A stretch of DNA of 64,000 nucleotides. It comes from Bacteroidota bacterium. Its GTDB lineage: Bacteria > Bacteroidota > Ignavibacteria > UBA10030. Of this stretch, positions 6,508-63,930 are shown one piece after another. The stretch lies in the NCBI GenBank assembly GCA_026416125.1, contig JAOAFT010000007.1:27468-91467 (forward strand), read 5' to 3'. A program made the position numbers and the translations under genes. Within the stretch, counting starts at the first letter, position 1; every line of letters starts with the position of its first letter. The notes under the pieces are model-generated. The model was not told the DNA's origin, searched no databases, and saw only the letters and a program-made list of their open reading frames with translations.

Positions 6508-6662
6508 AACTTGGTTCTCCTTGCCTCTTGTTTAAGCAATAGTAACATACAAATTGATTCGAAAAAATAAAATAGAAAAGCAAGGTATAATGTGTTGTAA
6601 TTGTACTTGGAATAGAAAGAAAAGCTATGTATACTTTGTGTAGAAAAGTTAGGAGGGAATCT

Positions 6663-36599: not shown

Positions 36600-37805
36600 A
36601 TGAAAAACTGTATAAAAGTATTTTTGTATGTAGCTCTCAGCATAGTATCGACACTAGTAGCTATTCCACAGGTACTTGGACCTCAGTCTTATAAACTCGA
36701 TACACTTGCAGTAGGATTAAAGCAACCAGAAGGTCCACTCTGGGTTGAGGGAGTAGGACTGCTTTTTAGTGACATTATGGCGAATAAGATTTATTTGTGG
36801 TCGCCAAATACACAATCTATCACGGTGTTTCTTGCACCATCAGATAGTTCAAATGGATTAACACTCGACCGTGAACGTCGTTTAGTACTAACTCAGATGG
36901 CAAAGCGACGGGTAGTTCGTCGTGAACATGATGGAACTCTTGTTCCACTTGCTGAAACATTCCGTGGGAAAAAATTCAACAGTCCCAATGATCTTGTTGT
37001 AAAGTCGGATGGTTCGGTATTCTTTACTGATCCAGATTTCAATGTACCTTTTGGTCAGCAAAAGGAATTGACTTTTAAAGGTATTTATAGAATTAGTACA
37101 TCGGGACATATAACACTCCTTGATAGTACTTTCGACAAACCAAATGGTATTTGTTTTTCCCCTGATGAACGCAGATTGTATGTTAATGAATCTGCTCAAC
37201 GGAAAATATATGTATGGGATGTAGTAAATGATTCTGTCATTACAAATAAACGCTTGTTTTATACAATACCACAAAGTGGATACGCTGATGGTATGAAAAC
37301 TGATTCATTTGGGAATCTCTACTGTACAGGACCAGGTGGTGTTTGGATTCTCTCGCCTGAGGGTACGGTACTGGGGAAAATATCAACACCTCTAAATCCG
37401 TCGAATTGTACATGGGGCGATGTTGATCGTAAAACGCTTTTTATCACTGCAGGTTATGGTCAAGGTGTTCTGTATCGAGTTCGTGTACAATCAACTTCTA
37501 ATGTCGACAGAAATGCATTGCAACCTGAAATCATGGAACTTTTCCAGAACTATCCTAATCCTTGCAATCCATCGACTACAATCATGTATCGACTGAATCA
37601 AGAAAGCATCGTAACACTTGATATCTTTGATAGTAATGGTCGATCTCTCACAACGCTGATCCGTAGATGTCTCCAGGGAAGAGGGGTTCATACTGTACCA
37701 TTCAACACTCAACAATACGCAAGTGGAGTATATTACTATCGATTAAGTGTGAATGTCGGGACGATGGCTTTAACACAAACTCGTTCCTTTGTTGTTGTCA
37801 AGTAG
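36600..37805 (+). CDS. SMP-30/gluconolactonase-family protein with T9SS type A sorting domain
   Basis: PEGPLW, SNGLT, NSPNDL, FTDP, PNGICFSPDE, DGMKTD; C-terminal NYPNPCNPSTTI...SGVYYYRL. Confidence 0.9.
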   Translation: MKNCIKVFLYVALSIVSTLVAIPQVLGPQSYKLDTLAVGLKQPEGPLWVEGVGLLFSDIMANKIYLWSPNTQSITVFLAPSDSSNGLTLDRERRLVLTQMAKRRVVRREHDGTLVPLAETFRGKKFNSPNDLVVKSDGSVFFTDPDFNVPFGQQKELTFKGIYRISTSGHITLLDSTFDKPNGICFSPDERRLYVNESAQRKIYVWDVVNDSVITNKRLFYTIPQSGYADGMKTDSFGNLYCTGPGGVWILSPEGTVLGKISTPLNPSNCTWGDVDRKTLFITAGYGQGVLYRVRVQSTSNVDRNALQPEIMELFQNYPNPCNPSTTIMYRLNQESIVTLDIFDSNGRSLTTLIRRCLQGRGVHTVPFNTQQYASGVYYYRLSVNVGTMALTQTRSFVVVK

Positions 37806-49328: not shown

Positions 49329-50693
49329 GTGGGGGTGTACAGTATGTTATCGAATACATTTAATAAAACACCGTTGTGGTTCATTGTAGTTTTTATAACA
49401 CTACTTGCTATTCTTATTGTAATTTATATGCCGTTTCAAATTCACGTTTTCGATGAGACTGATGTTAAGAAAATATACTACGTTGATAACATATCCCCCG
49501 CACATCAACTTCTTATTAGTCGCTTTAACGAAATGTATAGAGGTTCGATTGAGGTAGTTCCAGTCAATCTTCCATTTCATCAGTTTACAACAAATGATCG
49601 GAAAGAGATTCTCACACGGTCGTTGAGGAGTCGTAGTGATGCAATTGATGTTTTTGCGGTGGATCTGATTTGGATCCCTCGTTTTGCGAAGTGGGCGTAT
49701 CCACTCAATCAGCTAATATCATCTGATGTTCTACCTACAATAAATAGTAATGCACTAAGTGTGTGTTACCAAGATGATAAATTAGTTGCCTTCCCACTAT
49801 TCCTTGACATTGGAATTCTCTATTACCGTTGTGACATTTTATGCACCATACCAGGGGGGAAGGAGTTCGAAAGAAAATTAGTAAATGGTATGACGTGGGA
49901 TGATTTTATTGCTTTTGGGCGAAAGTGGTGGCGGCGCACACAAGCACCATTCTATATTTTTGCTGGTGGTGAATACGAAGGAATGATTTGTTCATTCTAT
50001 GATATGGTTCCAGAATATGAATACCTTTCAATGTTTACGGCGGGGGAGGTAAATCTTTATACACCTCGAGCTCGACGTGCATTGCAACATCTTGTTGATT
50101 GTATTCATAAGCATCGTTTTACACCGATTGAAGTTACAACATTCGATGAGTTTGCAAGTTATCTCTACGCAAATGAACATAATGTACTTTTCTTACGGGG
50201 GTGGGTCGGATTTCATAAGCAATATAAAATGTTTCTAAAGGATACTTCTCACCTTAAGTACTTCGAAATTGCTCCACTCCCACATTTTCAAGGGTGTAAT
50301 ACCTCTACTGTCTTTGGTGGTTGGAGTCTTATGATTTCCAAGCATTCAAACCGTGTTGAAGAGGCATTGAAGTTTATTCAATTTATGTATGAGAAAGAGA
50401 GCCAGGAAATATTGTACAATTACGGTGGGTATTTACCAGTTAACATGGCTGTGTATAGTGATAGTGTCTATATTCGACGGCACCCAGAGCTTAAAAAACT
50501 TCTTTGCTTTATGGCATGGGGACATCACCGACCAATGTTGGAGAACTACACACGAATATCAGAAATTATGGCTCATACATTCCATCGGGCTTTGAAGAAT
50601 GAGTTCTCTGTTGATACAGCGCTTATACGCGCAACACACCAAATCAATGAAGAACGAGTGCTTCTTCGGTCTGAAAAGGAGGAAGTACCATGA
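49329..50693 (+). CDS. Membrane-anchored extracellular solute-binding protein (sugar type)
   Basis: N-terminal TM, DVFAVDLIWIPRFA, AFPLFLDIGILYYR, GEYEGMIC, FLRGW, GGWSLMISKHS; start GTG 49329 or ATG 49344. Confidence 0.85.
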   Translation: MGVYSMLSNTFNKTPLWFIVVFITLLAILIVIYMPFQIHVFDETDVKKIYYVDNISPAHQLLISRFNEMYRGSIEVVPVNLPFHQFTTNDRKEILTRSLRSRSDAIDVFAVDLIWIPRFAKWAYPLNQLISSDVLPTINSNALSVCYQDDKLVAFPLFLDIGILYYRCDILCTIPGGKEFERKLVNGMTWDDFIAFGRKWWRRTQAPFYIFAGGEYEGMICSFYDMVPEYEYLSMFTAGEVNLYTPRARRALQHLVDCIHKHRFTPIEVTTFDEFASYLYANEHNVLFLRGWVGFHKQYKMFLKDTSHLKYFEIAPLPHFQGCNTSTVFGGWSLMISKHSNRVEEALKFIQFMYEKESQEILYNYGGYLPVNMAVYSDSVYIRRHPELKKLLCFMAWGHHRPMLENYTRISEIMAHTFHRALKNEFSVDTALIRATHQINEERVLLRSEKEEVP

Positions 50694-52162
50694 AATCGAA
50701 ACCAAGATTGAAAACATTTCATTTCAATTGGAAACACTTTCTTGTTATTTTTATTGTACTTCTTGCATTTCAAATAGTTATTTCACAGCTCGAGCGAAAT
50801 ACCTTACGAGAGTTACTCTCCGATACGATGGACTGGTACAAGCAAAATTCTGCAGAACAGATTGCGAACTTAACAACAGTATCGATTGAGGTTTTGCTTG
50901 AAAGCGACCCTCTTGGAAGCTCACAGAACAATAATTCTAAGGTTAAAGCACTTGTCCACGCATTGAATAGTATTCTCAAGCAACCGCTTATGAAGCGCAA
51001 TGTGGAAGCAATGTGTATTATTCTCCCACACAAAGATACGTTTATTGCTGTTGACCATGGGAAGGACCTCTATTCATACTTTTTTGAACGTACTATACAC
51101 ACTGCATCACTTGTACCATCGTACCAGTCAGTTGTTGAACAGTATGCTCAACTTCACCACTCAATGATGAAAACAGAACTTATTACAAGTATTCAAGAAG
51201 GTGAAAGCGTATTTCATGTTTTTGTACCGCTTGTCCCCTATGGGGAATATGTTGGTGCTGTATACCTCAGAATTCATCCTGATGTGTCTTCTATTAGTCA
51301 ACAAATTGTTTCAAGCTTCAATAAAACTGTCTTTATTTTTTCTATTCTCATTCTTTTAGGTCTCCTTGCACTTTTCTATCTCTCAACGTATACAATTATG
51401 GAACGAGACGAAGCATGGGAACTATTAGCTCGAGAACGAGAAGAACACGCCCGAGAACAAATAGCTCAGAAAAAAGAACGGTTGTTTACACAGCGTATTT
51501 ACCACACTCATCACAAAGCAGAAAAGGTTATGGGATTCATTAACGAAGATATTGAAAAGCTTGCTCCCTCCAATATTGTGGAGTTAAAGCACAGAATTGC
51601 AAAGTATGCGAATTTCATTGCTCGTGTTATCTACGACATGAAGTGGTACAATCCGCCATTGAGTACAATGCGTGGACCATTCTACAACACAAATTTAAAT
51701 GATGTCCTTCGCTTTATTATTGAAAATATTTTCTTACGTGTTTCATATCCTGTGGGCACAATTCAATTTCAGTACGACCTTGATGATTCACTTCCACCTG
51801 TGAATGTAAATGAGTTTGTTATTTGGGAAATTGTTGAACCTCTCATTCAGAATGCAATCGATCACTCTGGTACCGATCTTGTTGTAATTACAATCCAAAC
51901 GCGTTACAATTCAACTGATCGATGTGGTATAGTGCGTATTCGAGATAATGGAAAAGGGATACGCTCAGACTTACTTGAAAAAGATGAGAATGGAACTAGG
52001 AAACTCTTTTTAGAGCATATAACAACAAAAGGGGAAGACCGCCATTCTGGATATGGATGTTATCTTGCATACGAAGTTGCGAAACGTTGTGGTTGGGACC
52101 TTGATGCATTTAATATGGATGACGGAGGATGTTCTTTTGTGCTTTCAATACAGTACCAGTAA
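50690..52162 (+). CDS. Membrane sensor histidine kinase with atypical H-box
   Basis: Two TM helices flanking a periplasmic domain; LIQNAIDH, IRDNGKGI, ITTK, HSGYGCYLA. Confidence 0.85.
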   Translation: MKSKPRLKTFHFNWKHFLVIFIVLLAFQIVISQLERNTLRELLSDTMDWYKQNSAEQIANLTTVSIEVLLESDPLGSSQNNNSKVKALVHALNSILKQPLMKRNVEAMCIILPHKDTFIAVDHGKDLYSYFFERTIHTASLVPSYQSVVEQYAQLHHSMMKTELITSIQEGESVFHVFVPLVPYGEYVGAVYLRIHPDVSSISQQIVSSFNKTVFIFSILILLGLLALFYLSTYTIMERDEAWELLAREREEHAREQIAQKKERLFTQRIYHTHHKAEKVMGFINEDIEKLAPSNIVELKHRIAKYANFIARVIYDMKWYNPPLSTMRGPFYNTNLNDVLRFIIENIFLRVSYPVGTIQFQYDLDDSLPPVNVNEFVIWEIVEPLIQNAIDHSGTDLVVITIQTRYNSTDRCGIVRIRDNGKGIRSDLLEKDENGTRKLFLEHITTKGEDRHSGYGCYLAYEVAKRCGWDLDAFNMDDGGCSFVLSIQYQ

Positions 52163-52217
52163 TGGTACATTTCTTGCTATAGTTATTATCGAGTACATAG
52201 TACATTGAGGATATACC

Positions 52218-53666
52218 ATGGAAACAAAAGCTCCAATTAACTTACTTGTAATTGAAGATGAATCGTATGACGTACATCGCATAAAGCGGACACTTGAGCC
52301 TTTTAGTGATCGAATTGTGATTCGTGAAGTAGTAGCCGATGGACATAGCGCTGTTACATTCCTTTCAACCCATGAAGATGACATTGATGTTATTATCATG
52401 GATTATCAGATTGCAGGACCACTCACAGGTGAAAACCTTATTCGAAAACTCAAAGCAGTTGATCCAAATGTGCAGATCATTGTTGTAACGAAGATGACTA
52501 TTAATGTGACGAACTATGACTTTGCGAGCCGACTCATTGAGGCTGGAGCAATGTGGTTTTGCACAAAGTATCCTGCAGATATTAAGGAGTTTATTTATCA
52601 ACCAACGGATTTAATACTTTCTATTTTCAATGCCTATGAACAAAAACAGCTAAAGAAGGAAAAACTTACTTCGCGGCGTCAGCTCACACAATCAATAAAT
52701 AACATTCTCCATGAAAAGAAAATTGTTGGAGAATCTCCAGTATTAAAACAACTTCTCAAACATATAGAAAAAGCAGCACAACAAGATGCTACTGTGTTAA
52801 TTTGTGGTGCGTCTGGAACTGGTAAGGAATTGGTTGCTACACATATCCATTACCTTAGTAAGAGAAAGTATGAGAATTTTGTCAGTATCAATGCTGGGAG
52901 TATTCCTGAAGATCTTGTAGAAAGCGAGCTCTTTGGATTTACAAAGGGATCGTTCACTGGTGCAAATACACATAAAAAGGGATTATTTGAAATTGCTCAC
53001 CGAGGAACAATATTCCTCGATGAGATTAGTGAACTACCACTTTCAGCTCAGGTAAAGTTGCTCCGTGTACTCCAAGAAGGAGAAATCGATAAAATTGGTC
53101 GTACAGAGAGCATCAAAGTTGATGTTCGTGTTATAGCTGCCAGCAATGTGGATCTTGAACATGCTGTTCAAGCCAACAAATTTAGAGAGGATCTTTTTTA
53201 TCGTCTCAATGTTATTTACATTTACGTGCCAACACTACGGGAGCGAAAGGAAGATATTCCACTACTTGTTCATTACTTCCTTGAGAAGTACGCTACACAA
53301 ATGGCTCTACCCAAGCCCGATGTCACTGATGAAGCTCTCGATGCTCTCATGGCGTATGAATGGCCTGGCAATATTCGGGAACTCCAGAACATTGTACAAC
53401 GATTACTAATTAGCTGCGAAACAAATATTACAAAGAATGATGTTCATAATATTCTTGGAACGCGACGAATAGGTTCTGTACGTGGACCAGAATTTTGGTT
53501 TGGAGATTCAATTTTACCTTGGAAAGAAATGGAGAACCTCTTTCGTATCCGATATTTTACCTATGTACGAGAAAAGGTCCGTTCTGATTCGGAAGCAGCG
53601 CGGCTTCTTGGGATGGCACCGCCAAATTTCTACCGCCTCTGTCATAAACTTGGCTTGAAGAAATAA
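52218..53666 (+). CDS. Sigma54-dependent response regulator (NtrC family)
   Basis: Receiver (VIED, IMD), GASGTGKE, ESELFG..KGSFTGA, FLDEI, FREDLFYRL, WPGNIRELQN, C-terminal HTH. Confidence 0.95.
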   Translation: METKAPINLLVIEDESYDVHRIKRTLEPFSDRIVIREVVADGHSAVTFLSTHEDDIDVIIMDYQIAGPLTGENLIRKLKAVDPNVQIIVVTKMTINVTNYDFASRLIEAGAMWFCTKYPADIKEFIYQPTDLILSIFNAYEQKQLKKEKLTSRRQLTQSINNILHEKKIVGESPVLKQLLKHIEKAAQQDATVLICGASGTGKELVATHIHYLSKRKYENFVSINAGSIPEDLVESELFGFTKGSFTGANTHKKGLFEIAHRGTIFLDEISELPLSAQVKLLRVLQEGEIDKIGRTESIKVDVRVIAASNVDLEHAVQANKFREDLFYRLNVIYIYVPTLRERKEDIPLLVHYFLEKYATQMALPKPDVTDEALDALMAYEWPGNIRELQNIVQRLLISCETNITKNDVHNILGTRRIGSVRGPEFWFGDSILPWKEMENLFRIRYFTYVREKVRSDSEAARLLGMAPPNFYRLCHKLGLKK

Positions 53667-53809: not shown

Positions 53810-53824
53810 TGGCACGTTTATTGA
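53810..53824 (+). promoter_or_regulatory. Sigma54 (-24/-12) promoter
   Basis: TGGCAC-GTTTA-TTGA matches TGGCAC-N5-TTGC except the last base; lies just downstream of a sigma54 activator gene. Confidence 0.7.
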
Positions 53825-53890
53825 AAAAAGACCGATGTCGAAGGGTTTCTTGTATTTAGTGTCGATGGAATAGTAGGGAAGGGTAGTCCC

Positions 53891-55273
53891 TTGTACTTTT
53901 GGATTGTTGTTGGAATTTTTTTTCTTGCTCTTTTCGTATTTCGGAGTAAAGAAGCAACTTCGGAGAATTATTTTTTTGGGGGAAGAAAAATACACTGGTA
54001 CTTGCTATTGTGTGCATTGTTCTCAATATGGTGGATTCATGCTTTTCTATTAGTACTGTGGTTAAAAGCATTCACAATTTTTACGGTTTGTTCATATCTC
54101 ATTCTCATTCTTTTGTTCTCATATGTTGCAAACATGTTTATAGTACATGGATGTGAAACAGTTGGTGATTTTTTTGGAAAGCGTTTAGGAAATGTTTCAT
54201 GCAGATACTTTATTGCATCGGCAAGTATTCTCCTCTCTGTAATGGTTAAATTGACACTTGTTATCGTGATCGGGAACGCACTGCTAAGTTCAATATTAGA
54301 AGCAGATGCTTACTCAGTACTATTACTTCTTATTGTTACTGTCGGTTTATATGTTGTTGTTGGTGGTTTCGGTGCTGAGTTGTATGCTCAGGCAATCCAT
54401 TCTACAACTATGATGCTCGTTGGTATAGTTGCAACAGTTCTCCTTGTGAGTTGGAACTGGTTCAATGGTATTCAAGCTCTTCCTGCAATATTTCCTGAGT
54501 ATATACCCCTAAACAATTGGAGTACTGTGGTAACAGGTGTTCCTTTCTATGCTCTGTGGAGTTTTCTCGCAGATGGTGGAGCAGTACAAAAAGTTGCTAG
54601 TGCGGGTTCGTTGAGAACATTACGGAAATCTGTACTGATTACCAGTGTTATTCTAGCAATTGTTGGGATAGTACTTATTGGTGGTGGACTTGTAGCACAA
54701 TCCTTCGTTGTGGTGCAAGAAGGTGTTTCTAAATTGCTTTCTTTGTATACGAATGTGACTCTTTTGGTAGTAGTAGCAATAAGCATTATGGGAGCAAGTG
54801 CAACCATTTTTAACAGTGTTGCTGTTTCAATTACATACGATTTTTTTAAGACGATCCATCAAAATAGTTCAGGAAGGACACTTGTACTCGTTGGTCGTGT
54901 TACAACAATTGTTGTCTTAGTATATACAATTATTGTCATGCCATTCATTCTGTTATTTGCTCCATCGTTCTACCCCAATTTACTAACAATGCTTTTTCAT
55001 TGTTCAGCTGTACTGGGAGCGATGCTGTTCTCTTTATTTGTTGTAAGTACAATGACTGCTAAAGGTATTCTTCTTGGAGGAGTAGTTGGTTTAACTATTG
55101 CTCTCATTCGTTTTGTTGTTGTGGTTATAGGTAGTCAAGGTGTTAAAGAATATGTTGCTATTCTCATCAATAGTGGTGAGGGTTCACTGGCGTTATTCCT
55201 CCTCACATTCTGCGTAAGTTTTGTAACATGGAGTGTACAAAGGAAAAAAACTGCAACCAGTGTACATTCATGA
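53891..55273 (+). CDS. Divergent sodium:solute symporter family protein
   Basis: YFFGGRKIHW, FFGKRLG, YVVVGGF.A..Y, VQKVASA, FNSVAVSITYDFF, LVLVGR; start codon uncertain. Confidence 0.75.
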   Translation: MYFWIVVGIFFLALFVFRSKEATSENYFFGGRKIHWYLLLCALFSIWWIHAFLLVLWLKAFTIFTVCSYLILILLFSYVANMFIVHGCETVGDFFGKRLGNVSCRYFIASASILLSVMVKLTLVIVIGNALLSSILEADAYSVLLLLIVTVGLYVVVGGFGAELYAQAIHSTTMMLVGIVATVLLVSWNWFNGIQALPAIFPEYIPLNNWSTVVTGVPFYALWSFLADGGAVQKVASAGSLRTLRKSVLITSVILAIVGIVLIGGGLVAQSFVVVQEGVSKLLSLYTNVTLLVVVAISIMGASATIFNSVAVSITYDFFKTIHQNSSGRTLVLVGRVTTIVVLVYTIIVMPFILLFAPSFYPNLLTMLFHCSAVLGAMLFSLFVVSTMTAKGILLGGVVGLTIALIRFVVVVIGSQGVKEYVAILINSGEGSLALFLLTFCVSFVTWSVQRKKTATSVHS

Positions 55274-55310: not shown

Positions 55311-58300
55311 ATGATAAAACGACGAACGTTGCGTATCTATGGAAGTATTTTCTATGTATTCTTTCTCTATACTGGCATACTAATTGCCGGCACGACAGGA
55401 AAAATAACAGGGAGGGTTGTGGATAAGAATACGAAAGAGCCACTTCCCTCAGTCAATGTCTCTATCAAGGGAACATCGTTAGGAGCATCGACGGATATTG
55501 ATGGCTACTATACAATACTTCATGTTCCCCCAGGAGAATATACACTTGCAGCAAGCTACGTTGGGTATGCGACAGTAACCATTTCGAATGTGCGTGTACG
55601 AGTAGATCAGACAACAGTTGTTGATATAGAGATGGAGGAACAAACAATAGAAACAGCTGGTGTTACAGTGGTTGCGGAGAGGAATATTGTGAAGAAGGAC
55701 GTGTCAACGAGTGTAACATCTGTTCAGCAGGATGAAATACGTTCAATGCCAATTACTGCATTAGATAACATTGTAGGCTTACAAGCGGGTGTAGAAGAAG
55801 GCCTTAAGATTCGAGGTGGTGAAATTAATCAGCTTCTCCTACAACTTGATGGAGCAACACTTCGAGACCCTCGAAACAACCAACCGATCACCTTACTAGC
55901 TCTAAGCGGTATTCAGGAAATTTCGATTGAGAAGGGGGGATTCAATGCAGAGTATGGACAGGTACGTTCAGGAATTGTAAATGTCATCGGACGAGAAGGG
56001 GATGCCAAACAATACTTTGCTTCCGCCACCGTACGGTATAGCCCACCAACACCAAAGCATTTTGGTGTCTCTGTGTATGATCCTAATTCGATGTGGAATC
56101 GTCCCTACCTTGATCCAGAAGTGTGTTGGACAGGAACAGATGGTGAGCCATTTGTTGATCTCGATAGCAACACAGTTTACACACCAGGGGAGCCTTACAC
56201 GGATGTGAATAATGATGGTCGGTGGACTGGATGGGATTATTACACAAAGCGTCAGTATCCAAAGTTTGAAGGATGGAATGCAATTTCACAAGCATTATTA
56301 CAAGATAGTGATCCTACTAATGATTTAACACCAGCGGCTGCGCAACGTGTATGGCAGTGGGAACGTCGACGAAGACCAACAAAAGCACCAGATTATGACA
56401 TTGATGCCGGTTTTGGTGGCCCAATACCATATATTGGGAAATCACTTGGAAACCTTCGTTTCTTTACAACATACCGTTTTCTCCGCGAAATGTTACTGAT
56501 TCCTCTCTCACGCGATGATTACAGAGAGGAAGCATGGTCGTTTAAACTTAACTCTGATGTTGCAAGTGGTGTTACACTGATGATGAATGTTGGCGCTGGG
56601 AGAACATACAACGTTGCAATCAATGCAGATGACCGTCAATTCAATAACCCAGCATGGGGTATTAACGGTGTTCAGTTTTGGGATCCAACAGATTATATGC
56701 GTACTCCATATCAAATTGCAGAAATAACGAATGAGCAACGGCCATCTCGTATTTTTACAAATTCGTGGTATAGTGAAGCACTCGTTGATCATCGTACGGT
56801 GAGTGCAAAGTTGACACATGCTCTAAGCCCAAAAACATTCTACGAAATAGGATTTGAACACGTTCACAGAAAGTATAAAACAGGACCAATACGTCGTCGA
56901 AATTTAGCAAAAGTCTACGAGGTGGTACCATGGTATTTCGTTGATGAAGCACCATTCGGTTGGGATCCAACACCTACTTCTGGATTAACGGGAATGTTTT
57001 TTGGTGGACATTCAGCAACTGCACGAGATTCAAGTAAGGTGAGTTCGTACTTACTGAAGGCAAATATTACAAGTCAAGTCTCACTTGAGCACCTTGTGAA
57101 GGCTGGCATTGAAGTAACATTCTATAACCTCAATCTCGACTATGGTTTGGTGAATCCATTTTTCAGTGATGTGAATTACGTGAAAGAACGATGGAAGCCA
57201 TACCAAATTTCAGCATATATCCAGGATAAAATCGAAGCGTATGGCTTTGTGGCTAATATTGGTCTCCGAATGGATGTGAGCAATCCTAATACGGAATGGT
57301 ATGACATTATTGAAAATTATGATAAGGATTTTTATGCATACTACGATCCAGCAAAAAATTACCCGAAGAAACGAGTTAAATCAGATATTTCATTCAGTCC
57401 AAGATTAGGAATATCGCATCCTATTACCGAGAATTCAAAACTCTACTTCAACTACGGACACTTTAAGCAAATGCCAGAGTATGAAGAAATCTTTCGCTTA
57501 GGACGCGATTTGCTTTCGAGGAAAATTCGAAATATTGGTGATCCAACTTTGAAGCAAGCAAAAACAATTTCCTACGAGTTGGGGTACGATCAAGCGCTTT
57601 TTTCAATGTTTCTGCTACAAGTTGCTGCATTCTACAATGATATAACAAACGAACAATCATATACAAATTATGTAAGCGACTATGCAAATTATTTCAAAGC
57701 TAATAACAACAGTTACCGCGATATCCGTGGATTTGAAGTAACACTCCGAAAGTCAGACGGTGACTGGGTACGAGGATTCATTAATTATACATACCAAGTA
57801 CAAACGCAGGGAAGCTTCGGAAAACAAACAATCTACGAAAGTATTAGCGATCAACGTGACTACGACCGTAATACACAACTAGCATATCAACAGAAGCCTA
57901 CACCACAACCACGTGCAAACTGTGGGTTGACGATCTTTACACCGAATACACTCACACCACAACTCTTGCTCGCTGGATGGAGTATGAACATTCTTGCAAT
58001 GTGGCGAGCAGGGGAGTGGATTAACTACAATCCGAAGAATGCCCCAGAGTATGGTACAATTATTCAAAACGTTCAAACGACAGACTACTACAATGTTGAT
58101 ATGCGAATCAATAAAACAGTGTCGCTTAATTCGGTAGAATGTACATTTTTTGTTGACATTAAGAATCTTTTTAACTTCAAACGTCTCTCTGGTGCAAGTT
58201 TTTACGATATTCATGACCAACGTTATTACCTTGAATCCTTACATCTTCCTAAAAGCACGGCATACGATAATATACCAGGAAACGATCGCATCGGCGATGT

Positions 58301-58580
58301 TCGAAAGGGAGGTGTACCGTATCAACCGATAGAGCAGGTAACGAATGTGTATAGTCTCTCTCAACGGAACATTATACCCGGCACAATTTACTACGATAAA
58401 TCGACCAAAAAGTACATGGAATATGATTACACAACGAAAACATGGAACGAAGTAAATCATGCACGGATGAAAAAGATATTAGATGATAAGGCATATATCG
58501 ACATGCCAAATAATAGTTCATTTGATTTTCTAAACCCACGACAGGTGTTTTTCGGTGTTACTGTGTCTGTGAAGTTTTAA
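55311..58580 (+). CDS. TonB-dependent receptor with N-terminal carboxypeptidase-regulatory-like domain
   Basis: AGTTGKITGRVVD, plug motifs IRGG and GGFNAEYG...SGIVNV, FSPRLGISHPI, C-terminal PRQVFFGVTVSVKF. Confidence 0.92.
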   Translation: MIKRRTLRIYGSIFYVFFLYTGILIAGTTGKITGRVVDKNTKEPLPSVNVSIKGTSLGASTDIDGYYTILHVPPGEYTLAASYVGYATVTISNVRVRVDQTTVVDIEMEEQTIETAGVTVVAERNIVKKDVSTSVTSVQQDEIRSMPITALDNIVGLQAGVEEGLKIRGGEINQLLLQLDGATLRDPRNNQPITLLALSGIQEISIEKGGFNAEYGQVRSGIVNVIGREGDAKQYFASATVRYSPPTPKHFGVSVYDPNSMWNRPYLDPEVCWTGTDGEPFVDLDSNTVYTPGEPYTDVNNDGRWTGWDYYTKRQYPKFEGWNAISQALLQDSDPTNDLTPAAAQRVWQWERRRRPTKAPDYDIDAGFGGPIPYIGKSLGNLRFFTTYRFLREMLLIPLSRDDYREEAWSFKLNSDVASGVTLMMNVGAGRTYNVAINADDRQFNNPAWGINGVQFWDPTDYMRTPYQIAEITNEQRPSRIFTNSWYSEALVDHRTVSAKLTHALSPKTFYEIGFEHVHRKYKTGPIRRRNLAKVYEVVPWYFVDEAPFGWDPTPTSGLTGMFFGGHSATARDSSKVSSYLLKANITSQVSLEHLVKAGIEVTFYNLNLDYGLVNPFFSDVNYVKERWKPYQISAYIQDKIEAYGFVANIGLRMDVSNPNTEWYDIIENYDKDFYAYYDPAKNYPKKRVKSDISFSPRLGISHPITENSKLYFNYGHFKQMPEYEEIFRLGRDLLSRKIRNIGDPTLKQAKTISYELGYDQALFSMFLLQVAAFYNDITNEQSYTNYVSDYANYFKANNNSYRDIRGFEVTLRKSDGDWVRGFINYTYQVQTQGSFGKQTIYESISDQRDYDRNTQLAYQQKPTPQPRANCGLTIFTPNTLTPQLLLAGWSMNILAMWRAGEWINYNPKNAPEYGTIIQNVQTTDYYNVDMRINKTVSLNSVECTFFVDIKNLFNFKRLSGASFYDIHDQRYYLESLHLPKSTAYDNIPGNDRIGDVRKGGVPYQPIEQVTNVYSLSQRNIIPGTIYYDKSTKKYMEYDYTTKTWNEVNHARMKKILDDKAYIDMPNNSSFDFLNPRQVFFGVTVSVKF

Positions 58581-58607
58581 CGATAATGATCAAGAAGGGA
58601 TAAACGT

Positions 58608-60809
58608 ATGAAGAAAGTAAGCTGCTCATTTGGATGGACACTAATGGTAGCAATTGCACTTTGGATGGTTGCTAGCGTACAACTGATCGAGGCACAGGTA
58701 CAAGGTCATCAAGAAATTCGTTGGATGCGGGTGAGCTCGTTGCACCACTGGTTTTCAAATGGTGTAGTAGAAATTGAATACGGCCGACGCAGTCGGAGCC
58801 AATTAACAACCGATCAACTTGATGGGTTGAATTGGCCTGGGGAATACACACTCAATAAGGGTGTTAATGTCGGAAAGTCATTGTGGATTGGGACAACGAA
58901 TTTCAAAGACCCTGTTACGAATCAAACATATCCCTACAAGGTTGTATCGTTAGGGAGGCTCAATTTATACATTGACTCAGATGTATTTCCTGTTGAATTC
59001 AAACTTATAGGGAAGTTTCCGCATCCTAGTGTTATCGTCGATGGGGTAAAAGCGACGGAACGTGATATCGATGATGTTGTGGATGAATACAATCCCAATT
59101 TGCCATGCGATCGCATGATCTACAATCGAGCCCACACGTCAATAGGCATTACAATTACTCGACGGGTCTATGCCTTTACACAGCAATATCATGATAATTA
59201 CTTCATCTATGAGTATGAATTTGTAAATACAGGAATTATTGATAACAAAGGTACAAAGATGAATCCGCACCCAACCCTTACGGGTGTTGTGTTCCATTGG
59301 CAACATCGGTATGGTTTTGCAGGTGAGTCGTATCAAGACCAGCCACCATGGGCACCAACAGGTGCGAGTTGGGGATTAAATACCATCAATGATGCTGTAG
59401 GGCAAGACCCTTCACACACACTCCCACCACCGAATAACTTTCGAGCTGTTTTGTCATACTATGGTCCAGTATCGACTGAAGGAACAGTAGATGAAGATAT
59501 TGGACGACCCAATCCTTACAATGGAAAGACAATGGCAGGTACATGTTTTGCTGGTGTTGTTGTTCTCCATGCAGATAAAAGCAGCACGGATCACTCAGAT
59601 GATCCAAAACAACCAACAACAACGCGTTTTATGGGATCAGATAAGGACGCACAAACAGTAAATCAATACGATGCAGCTCTCATGACACTGAAATATCAAT
59701 ATATGACAGCCGGGCACCCAACTCAAACTCACGCTGAGCAGATTGGAAAGAACCAGTGGGGATGGCCTACAGGATTTGCAAATACCTGGGGTGGTGATCC
59801 TGGTGGGTATGCAGCCGCGCAGGGGTTTGGTCCATACACAATGGCTCCGAATGATACAATCCGCATTATTTTTGCTGAAGGTGTTGCTGGAATTATGAAT
59901 GATCGGGCCTTGGTTAATGAAATTGCTCAGAGTTGGTTCAAAAAAACTCCACCCCGTGGACTTAATGCGTACCCATTACCACCGAACGCACCAACTCCAA
60001 CAACAACGGATAGAAATGAATACAAGAATTGGTGGGTTTTTACTGGCAAAGATTCTCTTTTTCAAACATTTAGGCGGGCAATCGAAAATTTTAAATCAGG
60101 CTATTCAATACCACAACCACCACCCCCACCAAGTAAGTTCATGGTGCAATCTGGTGGGAAGCAAATAACGTTAACGTGGGAGGGACCAGAAGCTGAAGCA
60201 CATCCGAATTTTGATGGCTATGAAGTATATCGATCAGAGGGAAGAACTGATACAACATTTTCAAAAATCTTTTCATGTAACAAGAGTAATCTTACGCATA
60301 CCTTTGTTGATCGTACGGCACGCCGCGGGTTTAATTATTACTACTACATTGTTTCCAAAGATGATGGAACAAGGAACACAGTTCAACCAGGTGTACCGTT
60401 AGTCAGTAGTAAGTTTTATACGATGACGAATACACCAGCATACCTTACACGTCTCCCTGGTGAGCGCCTTTCCGATATTCGTATTGTACCGAACCCATGG
60501 AACATCAGAAGTCGTAGTTTATATTTCGGCCTTGATCCAACATCACAGGATCGTTTGGTTTTCTACGAATTACCACCATACTGTGTTATTCGCATCTACA
60601 CAGAAACAGGTGATTTAATAGAAACTATTAACCACACTGATGGGAGTGGTGTTGAATTCTGGCATTCCTTAACATCGTCGCGTCAGGTTGTTGTGAGTGG
60701 TGTTTACATCGCATATATCGAAGTAACAAGTGATTACTACAATGACCAAGGAGAATTGGTGTTTAAAAAAGGAGATAACGTCTTTAAGAAATTTATCATC
60801 ATACGATAA
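58608..60809 (+). CDS. Secreted protein with FN3-like domain and T9SS-like C-terminal domain
   Basis: Signal peptide; PQPPPPP linker, ITLTW...FDGYEVYR...YYYYIV; IRIVPNP...IRIYTETGDLI...SGVYI...KKFIIIR. Confidence 0.78.
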   Translation: MKKVSCSFGWTLMVAIALWMVASVQLIEAQVQGHQEIRWMRVSSLHHWFSNGVVEIEYGRRSRSQLTTDQLDGLNWPGEYTLNKGVNVGKSLWIGTTNFKDPVTNQTYPYKVVSLGRLNLYIDSDVFPVEFKLIGKFPHPSVIVDGVKATERDIDDVVDEYNPNLPCDRMIYNRAHTSIGITITRRVYAFTQQYHDNYFIYEYEFVNTGIIDNKGTKMNPHPTLTGVVFHWQHRYGFAGESYQDQPPWAPTGASWGLNTINDAVGQDPSHTLPPPNNFRAVLSYYGPVSTEGTVDEDIGRPNPYNGKTMAGTCFAGVVVLHADKSSTDHSDDPKQPTTTRFMGSDKDAQTVNQYDAALMTLKYQYMTAGHPTQTHAEQIGKNQWGWPTGFANTWGGDPGGYAAAQGFGPYTMAPNDTIRIIFAEGVAGIMNDRALVNEIAQSWFKKTPPRGLNAYPLPPNAPTPTTTDRNEYKNWWVFTGKDSLFQTFRRAIENFKSGYSIPQPPPPPSKFMVQSGGKQITLTWEGPEAEAHPNFDGYEVYRSEGRTDTTFSKIFSCNKSNLTHTFVDRTARRGFNYYYYIVSKDDGTRNTVQPGVPLVSSKFYTMTNTPAYLTRLPGERLSDIRIVPNPWNIRSRSLYFGLDPTSQDRLVFYELPPYCVIRIYTETGDLIETINHTDGSGVEFWHSLTSSRQVVVSGVYIAYIEVTSDYYNDQGELVFKKGDNVFKKFIIIR

Positions 60810-60820
60810 CGGGAGGAGTA

Positions 60821-61582
60821 GTGAGAATGGATACGAAAACAATGAAGTCATTGATGCTACTGTGTTTATGTGTAGGTATTATAGTAGGGATAACGATTGG
60901 TTGCGATATGATAATTCCCGAAGAATTTAAAGAAAAGATCTACAGTAGTCCTGCTGAAGAGCAATACATTTGTTCTCTGTTTATGAAACCGATTACCACC
61001 ACTGCTTCTCCACGTCAGGTGAGTGATTCAACAGTATATCTTGTCTCAGGCAGAGCACTCTCAAGTTTTGCGTTCATACCTCAGCAGGAGCTAGATACGA
61101 TGACCGATAATAAACTATTGAAAAAGTACTATACACAAATTGTCGATAGTCTTCCAAATATTCCTAAAAATTCTCTTGTATTTTTTGAGTACGCAAAACG
61201 CCCAGCTGATGCTCCTAAAACGATCTACGCAAAACTTGTTGTTCCAACACAAGCAACATACACAATCTATGTTAGTTTGGAATTTTATTTCACGAGTACA
61301 ACATCCAACCTTGGTGAAAATGTTCTTCCTGAAGTTCTTCGGAGTGATACATCTTCGATACCGCTGAAAGATGTGATTACAAATGAACAACTCTCAGCAT
61401 GTTCGCAGACAGTCACAGGTGCAGGTACAACGACCCGCGTACTTACCATAAAAGGTCGCTATGAAGCAACACTCGATCAAGGTACATACGTTGTACGCTT
61501 CACATTAACAAAACCTGAAGAGATGGTAAACCCGACAACGAGAGGGTTGTTCTATTTCAAACTCTACATTCGTTCAAAATGA
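60821..61582 (+). CDS. Hypothetical lipoprotein
   Basis: Lipobox TIGC; GGGAGG RBS; beta-rich C-terminal half. Confidence 0.65.
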   Translation: MRMDTKTMKSLMLLCLCVGIIVGITIGCDMIIPEEFKEKIYSSPAEEQYICSLFMKPITTTASPRQVSDSTVYLVSGRALSSFAFIPQQELDTMTDNKLLKKYYTQIVDSLPNIPKNSLVFFEYAKRPADAPKTIYAKLVVPTQATYTIYVSLEFYFTSTTSNLGENVLPEVLRSDTSSIPLKDVITNEQLSACSQTVTGAGTTTRVLTIKGRYEATLDQGTYVVRFTLTKPEEMVNPTTRGLFYFKLYIRSK

Positions 61583-61605
61583 ATAATGGAAAGGAGTAGC
61601 AAACA

Positions 61606-62619
61606 GTGAAACAGAGACAACGACGATTGTGGTTGTGCTTGGGGGTAGTAGTTTTTGTTAATATTCAGTGTATGCAAGCACAAGTTAAATGGGCACAAAC
61701 AGGGTTTAACTTCTTAAGTGTGTCTTCTGATGCACGCGCTGGAGGAATGGGTGAAGCAGTTACGTCACTGGGGGGCTACCGTGGTGCACTTTTCCATAAT
61801 CCAGCAACGATGGCAGAAATGGATGCTTTTCTAAATGCTTCGGTGAGTATGAACTCATGGATTGCGGATATCAGACATATTACAGCAAGCATTCTCCTTG
61901 CACCATTCGCAGGAAATTACGGTGTTGTTGGGGTCAGTTTTCAGAGTGTTGATTATGGTGAGATTGAAGGGACTATGAGATTTGATAACCCCAAGGGGTA
62001 CATCAATACAGAAATTCTCAAACCCTCAGCGTTAGCGGTGGGTTTCGGATATGCGAAGATGATTTCCGATAGATTCAGTGTTGGAGGGCAAGTAAAATTC
62101 GCTTACCAATCTCTAGGGAAAAGCATTGTTCCACACGATGATGGTTTCATTACAAAACGAAACGTCGCAAAAGGTATTGCGTTTGATTTTGGCACATTAT
62201 TTAAAACAGGGGTAAAGAGTTTAGCATTTGGCATGTCGATCCGTAACTACTCAAAAGAGGTAAAGTATGAAATAGAAGGGTTTCAGTTACCTCTCAATTT
62301 CATTGTTGGTATCTCAGCGAATATTCTCGATTTCTTTACACAGAGTGAAAATCATTCACTTGTTGTAGCAATTGATGCAACCCATCCACGCTCACACCCT
62401 GAGCAATTGAAGTTTGGAGCAGAGTACACGGTGCTAAAAGCCTTTGCGTTTCGTTGTGGGTATGTAACAAATAATAGTGAGGATAATATAACCTTTGGTG
62501 TCGGTGTTTCTACTCGTGGGTTAGGACTTGGTATGGCGAATATTGAGTGCGACTACTCGTATACGCCGTTTGGTGTATTTAATAATGTGCAACGCTTAAC
62601 CGTACGTATTGAACTATAA
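61606..62619 (+). CDS. PorV/PorQ-family outer-membrane barrel
   Basis: FLSVSSDARAGGMGEA, ALFHNPATMA, AFDFGTLF, LPLNFIVG, GAEY, FGVG, DYSY. Confidence 0.88.
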   Translation: MKQRQRRLWLCLGVVVFVNIQCMQAQVKWAQTGFNFLSVSSDARAGGMGEAVTSLGGYRGALFHNPATMAEMDAFLNASVSMNSWIADIRHITASILLAPFAGNYGVVGVSFQSVDYGEIEGTMRFDNPKGYINTEILKPSALAVGFGYAKMISDRFSVGGQVKFAYQSLGKSIVPHDDGFITKRNVAKGIAFDFGTLFKTGVKSLAFGMSIRNYSKEVKYEIEGFQLPLNFIVGISANILDFFTQSENHSLVVAIDATHPRSHPEQLKFGAEYTVLKAFAFRCGYVTNNSEDNITFGVGVSTRGLGLGMANIECDYSYTPFGVFNNVQRLTVRIEL

Positions 62620-62649
62620 TCCGTTTCACATTTTACGAATGGTGCAACT

Positions 62650-63930
62650 ATGAATTCAAAATATAAACAATACATTTATGAACTTGGTATACTTCTTGTT
62701 TTGTTTTTGAATGGATGTGTTGAGTTCAAGGATCCTGGTATAATATATGACGAGAAAGCAACATATCCACCATCACCATCGATTACAGCAATTATCCCAG
62801 CTGATTCTGCGGAAGCCGGGGTACGGGAAATTGAAATTCGAGGGAGTAATTTTTCAACTACGCTGCACAACAATTTTGTGTTCTTCGATAAACGACCAGC
62901 ATACATCAAAAGTGCATTAGTAGACAAACTTATTCTGTATAGACCACCAATATATGGGGATAGTATTACACTTGTGCTCGAAGTAGCTGGTTCTCTCCAA
63001 ATGGTGAAACGAACCTATAAAATTAAACAACCATATGTAGCGTACAGTTCGGATGCTATACGAACGGTGCGGCCAAGTGATCCACTTATGGCTGTTGAAG
63101 TTGATAAAAATGAAGTAGTGTACATTGCAAAATCATACTTCATTTACAAACTGACGTCTGATGAGACCGTTGAAATATTTAAAAGGCATAGTGGGGGTGA
63201 CTTTACGAGAATTTATGATATAAAATTTGGTCCTGGGGGATATCTTTACATTGCAGCAAGTAAAACAAAAATATGGCGCACATTGGGTGAAAATGATACA
63301 AAAGCGTACGAGTATGTTAGTTTACCAAGTAGCGCAGGGGTAGTGGAGAAAATCGAGTTTGATCGTTATGGAAATCTTTTTACAGGTAAAACTCGTGGGA
63401 TTTTTGTTGTGAAGCACAATCGAACAGTTCTCAACACAGGGAAATACAGCACGAATTTTACAATAACAGATCTTAGAATTTATAATGATGAACTTTACGT
63501 GAATGCAACATACACAGGTACTGATGTAGCGATTCCGAAACAAGCGATTTGGAAAAATACGATTTATAGAACAGGTACGCTCGTCGATTCACTTGGAGTG
63601 GGTTCAGTAGTATTTAACATCGGTTCACTACCTAGTTTTACGAATGCAGAAATCACTTCTTTCACATTCGATGTTGATGGAATGTTATATCTTTGTGTGA
63701 AATTTCCATCGAGCCAATTGTATTCATTTTATACTTTAGAAGGTGGGGCGTTAGTACCATTCTACACTGATTACATATTACCCATGAAGATCGATCAAGT
63801 AGTATGGGGTAATGCAACGACGCTCTATCTGAATCGAGGAAGAACGAGTTTCATTTCAGGTGATTCTGCACAGCTCTATCGTGTGCCTACACTGAAACAG
63901 GGTGCTCCTTACTGGGGACGAATATTGTAA
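62650..63930 (+). CDS. IPT/TIG-domain lipoprotein with propeller-like C-terminal part
   Basis: Lipobox LNGC; PSITAIIP...IEIRGSNFS...NFVFF; repeats VDKNEVVY, FGPGGYLY, FDRYGNLF, FDVDGMLY. Confidence 0.8.
   Translation: MNSKYKQYIYELGILLVLFLNGCVEFKDPGIIYDEKATYPPSPSITAIIPADSAEAGVREIEIRGSNFSTTLHNNFVFFDKRPAYIKSALVDKLILYRPPIYGDSITLVLEVAGSLQMVKRTYKIKQPYVAYSSDAIRTVRPSDPLMAVEVDKNEVVYIAKSYFIYKLTSDETVEIFKRHSGGDFTRIYDIKFGPGGYLYIAASKTKIWRTLGENDTKAYEYVSLPSSAGVVEKIEFDRYGNLFTGKTRGIFVVKHNRTVLNTGKYSTNFTITDLRIYNDELYVNATYTGTDVAIPKQAIWKNTIYRTGTLVDSLGVGSVVFNIGSLPSFTNAEITSFTFDVDGMLYLCVKFPSSQLYSFYTLEGGALVPFYTDYILPMKIDQVVWGNATTLYLNRGRTSFISGDSAQLYRVPTLKQGAPYWGRIL

Follow-up and report, generated by a model that had tools for sequence, protein, structure and literature searches.

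A conserved gene module linking a TonB-dependent receptor, a type IX secretion cargo protein and a dedicated PorV/PorQ-family barrel, probably for SusD-independent nutrient uptake

In Bacteroidota, the uptake of polysaccharides is usually explained, and predicted from genomes, by the SusC/SusD (RagA/RagB) pair, and the programs that find polysaccharide utilization loci (PULs) key on this pair. Another group of described systems belongs to type IX secretion (the T9SS) with its C-terminal domain (CTD) proteins. In Porphyromonas gingivalis, PorU and PorZ retain their CTDs, PorV and PorQ serving as their anchors, and for most cargo PorV is a transient shuttle (PMC5562754). A review suggests that cognate PorV-like barrels shield CTDs from cleavage and states that type B cargo genes usually cluster with cognate PorP/SprF genes (PMC10202324). 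The locus described here lies in a stretch of 64,000 nucleotides, called the window from here on, of a Bacteroidota bacterium (Ignavibacteria, UBA10030; assembly GCA_026416125.1, contig JAOAFT010000007.1, positions 27,468 to 91,467 of the forward strand). Five genes on the + strand (55311-63930) encode, in this order, a TonB-dependent receptor, a secreted protein of 733 amino acids that was named F733, a small predicted lipoprotein, an outer-membrane barrel and an IPT/propeller lipoprotein. We think it rather likely that these five genes are the core of a SusD-independent module for nutrient capture and uptake at the outer membrane; its substrate would most probably be a glycan, and the dedicated barrel would keep the T9SS-exported F733 at the receptor.

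As in the PULs with SusC/SusD and surface glycan-binding proteins, the gene of a TonB-dependent transporter stands directly before genes of surface proteins of the carbohydrate-binding type, the modules sit with inner-membrane sugar transporters and a dedicated regulator and, in the paralogous locus and in other genomes, with carbohydrate-active enzymes (CAZymes), and the IPT/propeller lipoprotein is built like a PUL 'auxiliary nutrient binding protein'. Unlike in those PULs, the receptor is not a SusC and there is no SusD-fold protein; its partner would be a T9SS cargo that is not a lipoprotein, has a supersandwich fold and comes with its own barrel. The locus resembles the PorQ-PorZ and PorV-PorU pairs of P. 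gingivalis in that a barrel of the PorV/PorQ family is paired with one CTD protein, and the CTD is PorZ-like, whereas F733 is not a T9SS component, it sits in nutrient-uptake loci by a receptor, and the pair is multiplied in the genome with different cargos. It also resembles the type B CTD proteins with PorP/SprF (SprB-SprF of Flavobacterium johnsoniae), where the cargo gene adjoins the cognate barrel gene and where the barrel is proposed to anchor the uncleaved CTD (PMC10202324). Unlike in that system, the window barrel belongs to the PorV/PorQ family, the CTD is linked to type A by iterated search, and the function would be tied to a receptor and not to gliding. The five genes, at window positions, are:

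55311..58580, + strand: TonB-dependent receptor, 1089 amino acids (CarbopepD_reg_2, an N-terminal carboxypeptidase-regulatory-like domain, 80.8 bits; Plug, 30.3 bits)
58608..60809, + strand: F733, secreted protein with predicted signal peptide, supersandwich, FN3 domain and T9SS CTD (AlphaFold model with a predicted local distance difference test score (pLDDT) of 92.4 and a predicted template modelling score (pTM) of 0.89)
60821..61582, + strand: predicted lipoprotein, 253 amino acids (lipobox-like TIGC in the N-terminus; no family match)
61606..62619, + strand: dedicated outer-membrane barrel of the PorV/PorQ family, 337 amino acids (190.2 bits with NF033709, the cut-off being 90; model positions 1-325 of 326)
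62650..63930, + strand: predicted surface lipoprotein with an IPT/TIG domain and a six-bladed beta-propeller, 426 amino acids (TIG, 21.3 bits; model pLDDT 88.4)

The intergenic gaps are 27, 11, 23 and 30 nt, so that the five tightly packed co-directional genes reported by the initial annotation, which had been made from the sequence alone, were found as described. The identities that it gave also held for the receptor (CarbopepD_reg and Plug domains), for the PorV-like barrel (PorV/PorQ family by NF033709) and for the two lipoproteins, one of them with an IPT/TIG domain.

Conservation of the receptor, F733 and barrel genes was examined in two sets of loci. The first set was drawn from 40 genomes of the phylum, with one locus per genome, and its open reading frames (ORFs) were scored with profiles built from the paralogues of this genome. 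The three genes were co-directional and in this order in 39 of the 40 loci. In this set the receptor of L083 is truncated by the contig end, L095 has an extra CTD gene between the receptor and a distant F733-like gene, and L067 is without receptor and barrel and its F733 match has an internal stop; the TIG lipoprotein was present in 31 of the 40. The second, independent set consisted of 80 loci from named records that were found with the 12-row alignment A4. By a hand count of the record titles, where the labels of metagenome-assembled genomes may be imprecise, it held 12 loci of Ignavibacteria or Melioribacteraceae, 19 of Calditrichota, 7 of KSB1, 8 of Neomarinimicrobiota or Fidelibacterota, 7 of unspecified Bacteroidota, 4 of Cytophagia or Chitinophagaceae, one each of WOR-3, Lentisphaeria and Deferribacteres, and 20 of plain 'bacterium'. 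Among the loci with enough room, a receptor gene preceded the F733 gene in 65 of 65 and a barrel gene followed it in 73 of 74, and both were present in 60 of the 61 loci with room on both sides, the exception being L178, which is without the barrel; in L136 the F733 frame was missed by the ORF caller. The TIG lipoprotein was found in 56 of 61 named loci and a small gene between F733 and the barrel in 37 of 73. When these intervening ORFs were compared by an iterated search of that small set, 34 of 36 were related to the 253-residue protein of the window, and 29 of 36 carry a lipobox-like motif. Because the TIG lipoprotein and the small intervening gene recur across the named loci, the exact five-gene form of the window is widespread. 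A neighbourhood survey had been proposed in the initial annotation, and it thus gave a triad that is conserved in several phyla, in addition to a paralogous copy in the same genome.

That paralogous copy lies on contig C21, where the F733 paralogue is 45% identical to F733 and the gene order is LacI, a sodium:solute symporter family (SSF) protein, GalK, GalT, receptor (1079 amino acids), F733-like protein (721), barrel (345), TIG lipoprotein (441), a CBM9-like protein, GH31 and GH13. Three further PorV-family barrels, on contigs C33, C24 and C7, also come after CarbopepD_reg receptors, as looser variants with other CTD proteins. The order on C33 is GH28, receptor, a 793-residue CTD protein, barrel and a 519-residue BamG-like barrel, followed by GDSL, GH28 and pectinesterase genes; on C24 the receptor is followed by a 1140-residue CTD protein, the barrel and then GWxTD and NHL proteins; and on C7 CTD proteins come first, with the receptor, the barrel and an NHL protein after them. 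Against the C-terminal part of the PorZ model, the CTD of the C33 protein scores 29 bits and that of the C24 protein 43.5 bits. The 519-residue protein of C33 (L021:11068-12627) has a weak match to the BamG family, 54.9 bits against 250, and is a second type of barrel at the place where the window has the TIG lipoprotein.

A tree of the PorV family was made by a quick search, and its deep order is unsafe owing to long branches. In this tree 39 F733-linked barrels, the window's included, fall into one group with a support of 94 in the Shimodaira-Hasegawa-like approximate likelihood ratio test (SH-aLRT), apart from the PorV and PorQ of this genome and from the barrels of C33, C24 and C7. The window barrel groups with those of L066, L092 and L093 (99) and the C21 barrel with that of L094 (99). 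Co-divergence of the three genes, a check that the initial annotation had asked for, was looked at in FastTree trees of F733 and the receptor, and for both in-genome copies the nearest neighbours were identical to those in the barrel tree. Since the three trees share their nearest neighbours, the module duplicates and diverges as a unit.

The binding of the barrel to the CTD of F733 was modelled with the barrel (alignment A2, 41 rows) and F733 residues 505-733 (alignment A1, 69 sequences), together with three controls, two with an unrelated protein in place of the F733 partner and one with an unrelated protein in place of the barrel. The interface score ipSAE was 0.89 in all three runs, whereas the best of the three controls gave 0.00; the mark applied to this score is reached by 58 of 80 solved complexes and by 2 of 110 mismatched pairs. 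The runs agreed in at least 94% of contacts, and the pLDDT of the partner was 75-81. All confident contacts of F733 were within residues 625-733 and included six of the seven invariant residues of the CTD, namely P628, N629, P630, G668, G698 and K728. On the side of the barrel, conservation of at least 80% among F733-linked barrels is seen at 22 of the 53 positions in the interface, compared to 67 of 257 positions elsewhere. The housekeeping PorV of the genome shares 6 of these 22 conserved interface positions but 35 of the 67 others, and PorQ likewise shares 6 of 22 and 32 of 67. The numbers are small and fit a docking surface on the barrel that is specific to the subfamily. The initial annotation had proposed that a dedicated barrel holds the neighbouring cargo, and the model of the cognate complex supports this as far as the predicted binding of barrel and CTD is concerned.

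Whether the window barrel could itself be the PorV of the general secretion machinery was decided from the rest of the genome. The barrel gave 87.6 bits with the PorV equivalog NF033710 (cut-off 250), 84.2 bits with the PorQ equivalog NF033711 (cut-off 220) and 20.8 bits with PorP/SprF TIGR03519 (cut-off 90.55), and none of these cut-offs was reached. There is no C25 peptidase or porU gene in the window locus. The genome has 14 matches to the PorV family, 8 of them above the cut-off; one member also matches FadL and a PorV2-like protein is encoded on contig C5. On contig C8, PorU (NF033707, 907 bits; Peptidase_C25) directly precedes a true PorV (274.4 bits against 250), and a true PorQ is on contig C22 (234.2 bits against 220). 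SprA is also present, the sole SprA_N match (169.7 bits) being at G000:C75:17904-19163 in an open frame of 2295 amino acids, and as this frame sits about 9.5 kb before the window start on the same contig (C75), the module shares its contig with a gene of the T9SS translocon. Because the true PorU-PorV, PorQ and SprA lie elsewhere in the genome, a housekeeping set exists apart from the window barrel. The barrel is a paralogue and not the housekeeping PorV, and the earlier description of it as the locus's own PorV paralogue was correct. Elsewhere in the genome, on contig C11 (L027:9312-12732), two weak PorV-family barrels in tandem, which score 80.3 and 77.2 bits and stay under the cut-off, come directly after a 524-residue CTD protein, and no receptor was seen in the ORF list of that stretch.

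The receptor gave 79.7 bits with SusC/RagA TIGR04056, the cut-off of which is 368.25, and the match is confined to residues 31-154, which is the N-terminal CarbopepD_reg part; judged by its sequence, the receptor is therefore outside the SusC family. When solved structures were searched with the receptor sequence, just two weak matches were obtained, both to the N-terminal domain, and no related solved receptor was found. The SusD families PF07980 and PF14322 had no match in the whole genome, which is 98.65% complete, whereas the Bacteroides control genome was positive; in particular, no SusD family match was found among the proteins of the locus or the genes 3' of the window. The statement that no SusD-like lipoprotein follows the receptor is thus borne out at the locus, downstream of it and genome-wide.

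The N-terminus of F733 is a plain signal peptide that has no lipobox, and F733 had no match in Pfam and NCBIfam. The domains of F733 were taken from the model and are:

58698..60122, + strand: galactose-mutarotase-like beta-supersandwich, residues 31 to about 505-550 (VIA-align structure search)
60129..60407, + strand: FN3 domain, residues about 508-600 (Foldseek; model strands 510-585)
60465..60806, + strand: divergent T9SS CTD, residues about 620-733 (PorZ-like fold, iterated search)

With the whole model, Foldseek returned mainly tandem FN3 domains, and the N-terminal domain was resolved by a wide VIA search instead. Its top matches were dextran dextrinase 9ju0 (Z 18.1, root-mean-square deviation (rmsd) 3.5, 256 residues aligned), cellodextrin phosphorylase 5nz7 (Z 18.1) and glucoamylase 1lf6 (Z 17.9), and the matched parts of all three are the N-terminal sandwich domains of those enzymes; against galactose mutarotases Z was 12-13. 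F733 thus shares the mutarotase fold of the N-terminal supersandwich of glycoside hydrolase (GH) families GH15, GH65 and GH94 (Z 17-18, 245-285 residues aligned). Unlike these enzymes it is without an (alpha/alpha)6 or other catalytic domain, the identity is 7-10%, and it would be a free surface protein with FN3 and CTD. The fold of the N-terminal domain is, in the model, of the carbohydrate-binding type, and the domain may well bind carbohydrate. The initial annotation had allowed for the cargo being an ordinary released enzyme; what was found is a supersandwich instead of a recognisable catalytic domain, which is no proof of a non-enzymatic nature.

The CTD of F733 did not match the curated CTD models PF18962 and TIGR04183 at E<=0.01. 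In the model, however, it superimposed on the CTD of PorZ (5m11) with Z 12.5 and an rmsd of 2.0 over 91 aligned residues of 22% identity. A jackhmmer search of the genome's ORFs with F733 residues 596-733 found 4-5 partners first and converged on 66 ORFs, with the domain at the extreme C-terminus in 63 of the 66; iterated profiles of this kind can drift, and the 66 include proteins that Pfam calls Por_Secre_tail. From the PorZ-like fold together with the iterated link to the genome's CTD proteins, F733 can be regarded as a T9SS-type cargo with a divergent CTD, in agreement with the secreted FN3/CTD protein of the initial annotation. The family of F733 has 15 invariant columns, 7 of them in the CTD, which makes up 114 of the 733 residues, and the polar positions D168, N207, T208, Q335 and Y410 are at least 90% conserved.

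Clusters at 90% identity gave 1029 matches to the F733 family, and clusters at 50% identity gave 2120 representatives at E<=1e-3, of which 309 reached E<=1e-30; all are unnamed or 'hypothetical', and the source names include Ignavibacteria, KSB1 and Calditrichaceae. A protein atlas search returned unnamed clusters only, from Fidelibacterota, Zixiibacteriota and Gemmatimonadota, with scores of 0.93-0.95. Some family members, P0089 and P0106 among them, have an ordinary Por_Secre_tail in place of the F733-type CTD, a GH5 fusion, or a length of 1200-1600 amino acids with very long C-terminal extensions, and such members with an altered C-terminus offer natural tests of whether the barrel and the special CTD occur together.

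In the IPT/propeller lipoprotein the lipobox cysteine, Cys23, is invariant in 32 of 32 homologues. Its propeller matched lactonase 8djf with Z 26.8. The two-domain architecture matched that of the B. thetaiotaomicron 'auxiliary nutrient binding protein' BT_3476 (3tc9; Z 22.8, 341 residues aligned, rmsd 7.6) and of 3hrp from the same species (Z 23.0, 342 aligned, rmsd 11.9), and these rmsd values are high because the domains are set differently.

The genes that flank the module elsewhere were examined by Pfam on 37 proteins from 13 loci; the local 'CBM9' profile includes the CTD, and its matches were therefore not counted as CBM9. Flanking T9SS cargo with GHL10 and Por_Secre_tail was found in L061, L072, L088 and L071, and GHL10 without a CTD match in L100; GH18 (L064), GH39 (L094), GH28 (L086) and NHL-CTD proteins were found as well. 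The closest relatives of the window module (L066, L092, L093) have a protein with a double CBM9 and a CTD, an SSF symporter and an upstream sigma54 activator, which was noted just 5' of the receptor in L066 and L092, and no glycoside hydrolase was found in the stretches fetched for these three. In L061, L071, L072, L088 and L100 the two commonest downstream partners are a CTD protein of about 440-480 amino acids, the N-terminal part of which is NHL-like or unknown, and a GHL10 protein (PF02638) of 660-820 amino acids, for which a CTD was found in all these loci but L100. The GHL10 family is glycosidase-like and poorly characterised, and its presence may point to the main substrate class of the module.

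The way in which the module would work can be put together as follows. F733 would cross the inner membrane by its signal peptide (Sec), and its CTD would then take it through the T9SS and across the outer membrane. The usual fate of a CTD is transfer to the housekeeping PorV and cleavage by PorU; here the divergent CTD would instead be bound and kept by the cognate barrel, in the manner of PorZ-PorQ and PorU-PorV. The supersandwich-FN3 part would then be tethered on the cell surface beside the TonB-dependent receptor, where the substrate for TonB-driven import would be captured by F733 and the IPT/propeller lipoprotein, joined in half of the loci by the small lipoprotein. The products would then pass the inner membrane via the SSF symporter, under the control of a sigma54 two-component switch. 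In this scheme we infer that the CTD is retained, that F733 touches the receptor and that the ligand is a glycan, and likewise what this copy takes up. The alternative utilisome architecture without SusD that the initial annotation proposed is supported: it had named beforehand, as findings that would speak against it, a barrel that is the only housekeeping PorV of the genome, a triad that is not conserved, a cargo that is an ordinary released enzyme and a SusD just downstream, and each of these was checked and none told against the proposal.

The relation of the module to SusD was examined in 301 genomes of the phylum, where related genomes are not independent of each other. An F733 match at E<=1e-20 was present in 131 of the 301; in about 71 (a hand count) the best match reached E<=1e-120 and corresponds to full-length F733, and the remaining matches are FN3-CTD or CTD-only. 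SusD_RagB was present in 166 of the 301. There are SusD-rich families without F733, namely f16 (SusD in 15 of 16 genomes, F733 in none of the 16), f21 (22 of 22 and 0 of 22), f24 and f27. In the families of the window's own class and order it is F733 that prevails: in f3 it was found in 7 of 7 genomes and SusD in 0 of 7, in f12 in 5 of 5 and 0 of 5, and in f2 in 7 of 7 and 1 of 7. Family f20, with 63 genomes of about 1.8-2.6 Mb, has neither F733 (0 of 63) nor SusD (0 of 63).

Several observations weigh against the reading of F733 as a barrel-anchored stand-in for SusD. Both F733 and SusD occur in f28 (33 of 49 and 48 of 49 genomes), f18 (5 of 5 for each) and f22 (3 of 3 for each), and a strict rule of either SusD or F733 but never both was therefore rejected; the module is an alternative that dominates where SusD is scarce and not an exclusive replacement. 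The SusD-less character of the locus that was claimed in the initial annotation stands in so far as there is no SusD, but the absence is a property of the whole genome and not of this locus, and other lineages carry the module and SusD together. GldM (TIGR03517) had no match in the genome, and as the control likewise had none, this carries no weight. The agreement of the trees is no proof of contact, because physically linked genes co-diverge regardless. The complex model used alignments of our own making, its controls were unrelated proteins and not non-cognate CTDs or the housekeeping PorV, and the high ipSAE may come from a memory of solved complexes of the PorV-CTD or PorQ-PorZ type. A rival explanation is that the barrel is an export helper only, that is, a cognate shuttle or secretion factor as PorP/SprF is for type B cargo, with F733 being cleaved and then released or linked to lipid, no stable complex being formed and the gene linkage reflecting co-expression. 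A model of the complex would look alike for transient binding, the PorU of the genome could cleave the CTD, PorV is described as a transient shuttle for most cargo (PMC5562754), and cargo genes as usually clustered with cognate PorP/SprF genes (PMC10202324). We nevertheless consider this explanation unlikely. The CTD, with 7 of the 15 invariant columns, is the most conserved part of F733, which is more in keeping with a permanent interface than with a signal that is discarded, it resembles the retained CTD of PorZ, and the other CTD proteins in these loci (CBM9-CTD and GHL10-CTD) have an ordinary Por_Secre_tail and no barrel of their own, although none of these three arguments is decisive.

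There are two other explanations. In one of them F733 is a surface enzyme, the supersandwich being the catalytic domain of an undescribed family of glycoside hydrolases, lyases or epimerases, so that the barrel anchors or exports it, the receptor imports the products and F733 is not a SusD-like partner. It counts against our preferred reading that supersandwiches are also catalytic or support catalysis, as in mutarotases, the GH174 fucanase 9k1g (Z 13.6) and lyase domains; moreover, F733 has the conserved polar motifs D168, N207, T208, Q335 and Y410, the window locus offers no other candidate enzyme, and one family member (P0089) is fused to GH5 and a Por_Secre_tail. However, the best matches, with Z 17-18, are non-catalytic N-terminal domains of GH15, GH94 and GH65, there is no invariant pair of acidic residues or histidines, the invariant columns of the N-terminal domain are mostly Gly and Pro, and ordinary CAZymes beside the paralogous and orthologous modules could do the cutting, so that we regard an enzymatic F733 as quite unlikely. 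The other explanation is that the module does not handle glycans at all and imports a peptide, a metal chelate or, via a FadL-like barrel, a lipid-like molecule, or has a role in export, as the Oar receptor of Myxococcus reportedly does. No glycoside hydrolase was found at the locus, neither in the 64-kb window nor in the 14.8 kb downstream, and because of this the substrate need not be a polysaccharide. More generally there is no CAZyme at the window locus, the PorV-family barrels are of the FadL-like type and one in this genome matches FadL, and the receptor has a CarbopepD_reg N-terminus, which we take to be typical of Oar-like receptors. Yet CAZymes or CBM9 proteins flank the paralogous locus and many modules elsewhere, sugar-type SSF symporters and GalK/GalT adjoin modules, and the folds of F733 and the lipoprotein are of the carbohydrate-binding and PUL-auxiliary type; a non-glycan module appears very improbable to us.

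Neither the components of the glycan-capture module that we favour nor the notion that a CTD protein can be anchored by a cognate barrel is new. What appear undescribed are the coupling to a TonB-dependent receptor as a conserved module of several phyla, the F733 family and a PorV/PorQ subfamily that is dedicated to F733. In the literature, no account of a module of receptor, CTD protein and PorV-like barrel was found, and as most subscription journals and supplements were outside the coverage, a prior mention is possible; the available part of a 2026 review of glycoside transporters does not contain 'type IX', 'PorV' or 'Ignavibacteri' (PMC13543919). If the module works as proposed, it would explain glycan uptake in abundant glycan degraders that are poor in SusD and live in sediments, springs and soils, such as Ignavibacteria, Calditrichota, KSB1 and Fidelibacterota; it would provide a marker for utilisation loci and a function for more than 2000 unnamed protein clusters, and it would give PorV/PorQ-type barrels a second role as dedicated anchors of nutrient-capture proteins. 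It is also a natural system, testable in cultured carriers, for how a barrel chooses a CTD and protects it from the PorU sortase. A wider idea, which we put forward tentatively and hold to be possible without counting on it, is that there is a second principle of glycan uptake across the Fibrobacterota-Chlorobiota-Bacteroidota (FCB) group, in which the receptor is served by T9SS-exported binders, each docked non-covalently by its retained CTD to its own PorV/PorQ-type barrel, with a scope of Ignavibacteria, Rhodothermia-like bacteria, KSB1, Calditrichota, Fidelibacterota and WOR-3. If this were true, the members of the 'shuttle' family of the T9SS would be surface anchors that can be exchanged for one another, and the secretion system would be an assembly line on which complexes for nutrient uptake are put together; F733, the protein of the pectin locus and others would be interchangeable substrate-specific heads, and the architecture could predate or parallel SusC/SusD.

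The genes upstream of the receptor are:

49329..50693, + strand: solute-binding-protein-like gene, 454 amino acids (SBP_bac_8, 51.2 bits; SBP_bac_1, 44.4 bits)
50690..52162, + strand: histidine kinase, 490 amino acids (HATPase_c, 43.2 bits; 4-nt overlap with the preceding gene)
52218..53666, + strand: sigma54-dependent response regulator, 482 amino acids (Sigma54_activat, 230.8 bits; Response_reg, 43.4 bits)
53810..53825, + strand: candidate sigma54-type -24/-12 element, TGGCACGTTTATTGAA (1 mismatch; 66 nt 5' of the symporter start)
53891..55273, + strand: inner-membrane transporter of the sodium:solute symporter family, 460 amino acids (SSF, 56 bits)

The gap between the symporter gene and the receptor gene is 37 nt. 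From its adjacency, the solute-binding-protein-like gene may be the first of a putative sensor set that would regulate the module. The candidate element was scored against TGGCAC-N5-TTGCW, which we took to be the sigma54 consensus. At up to 2 mismatches the window has 48 matches of this type compared to 30.6 expected, and because such loose matches are common in the window, the motif is weak evidence alone and counts only with the neighbouring activator gene. With this reservation, the placing of the module behind a symporter gene and a sigma54 promoter in the initial annotation agrees with the SSF gene and the element of one mismatch found here. A second match of this type, TGGTACATTTCTTGCT, also with 1 mismatch, is at 52163-52178, 40 nt 5' of the gene of the sigma54 response regulator, and hints at autoregulation.

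The contig extends 14.8 kb past the window end. The next gene past the window encodes a protein with CBM9 and Por_Secre_tail (40.5 bits to the CTD models) and it is followed by the gene of a GDSL/TPR protein; further 3' are an unrelated carbamoyltransferase and genes like those of the type II secretion system (T2SS) and type IV pilus. It had been noted earlier that the locus runs to the window edge and that its substrate is not visible. The second part agrees with the absence of a glycoside hydrolase; as to the first, the 14.8 kb downstream, with the CBM9-CTD and GDSL/TPR genes, have now been read. The T2SS/type IV pilus-like cluster on C75 (L019:7973-16393) consists of T2SSF, two T2SSE ATPases, two unknown ORFs and a secretin, and after it, at the contig end, is the gene of a CarboxypepD_reg and Big_1 protein. 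Within the window, an 805-residue gene product of the penicillin-amidase family (44252-46669, 737 bits) is encoded beside a TetR regulator, a Sir2 deacetylase and a pyruvate kinase, and is unrelated to the module. The window also contains two further T9SS cargo genes, one at 6627-8690 for a protein with DUF362 and Por_Secre_tail and the other at 36600-37805 for an SMP-30/gluconolactonase-like protein, the C-terminus of which is matched by the CTD profile.

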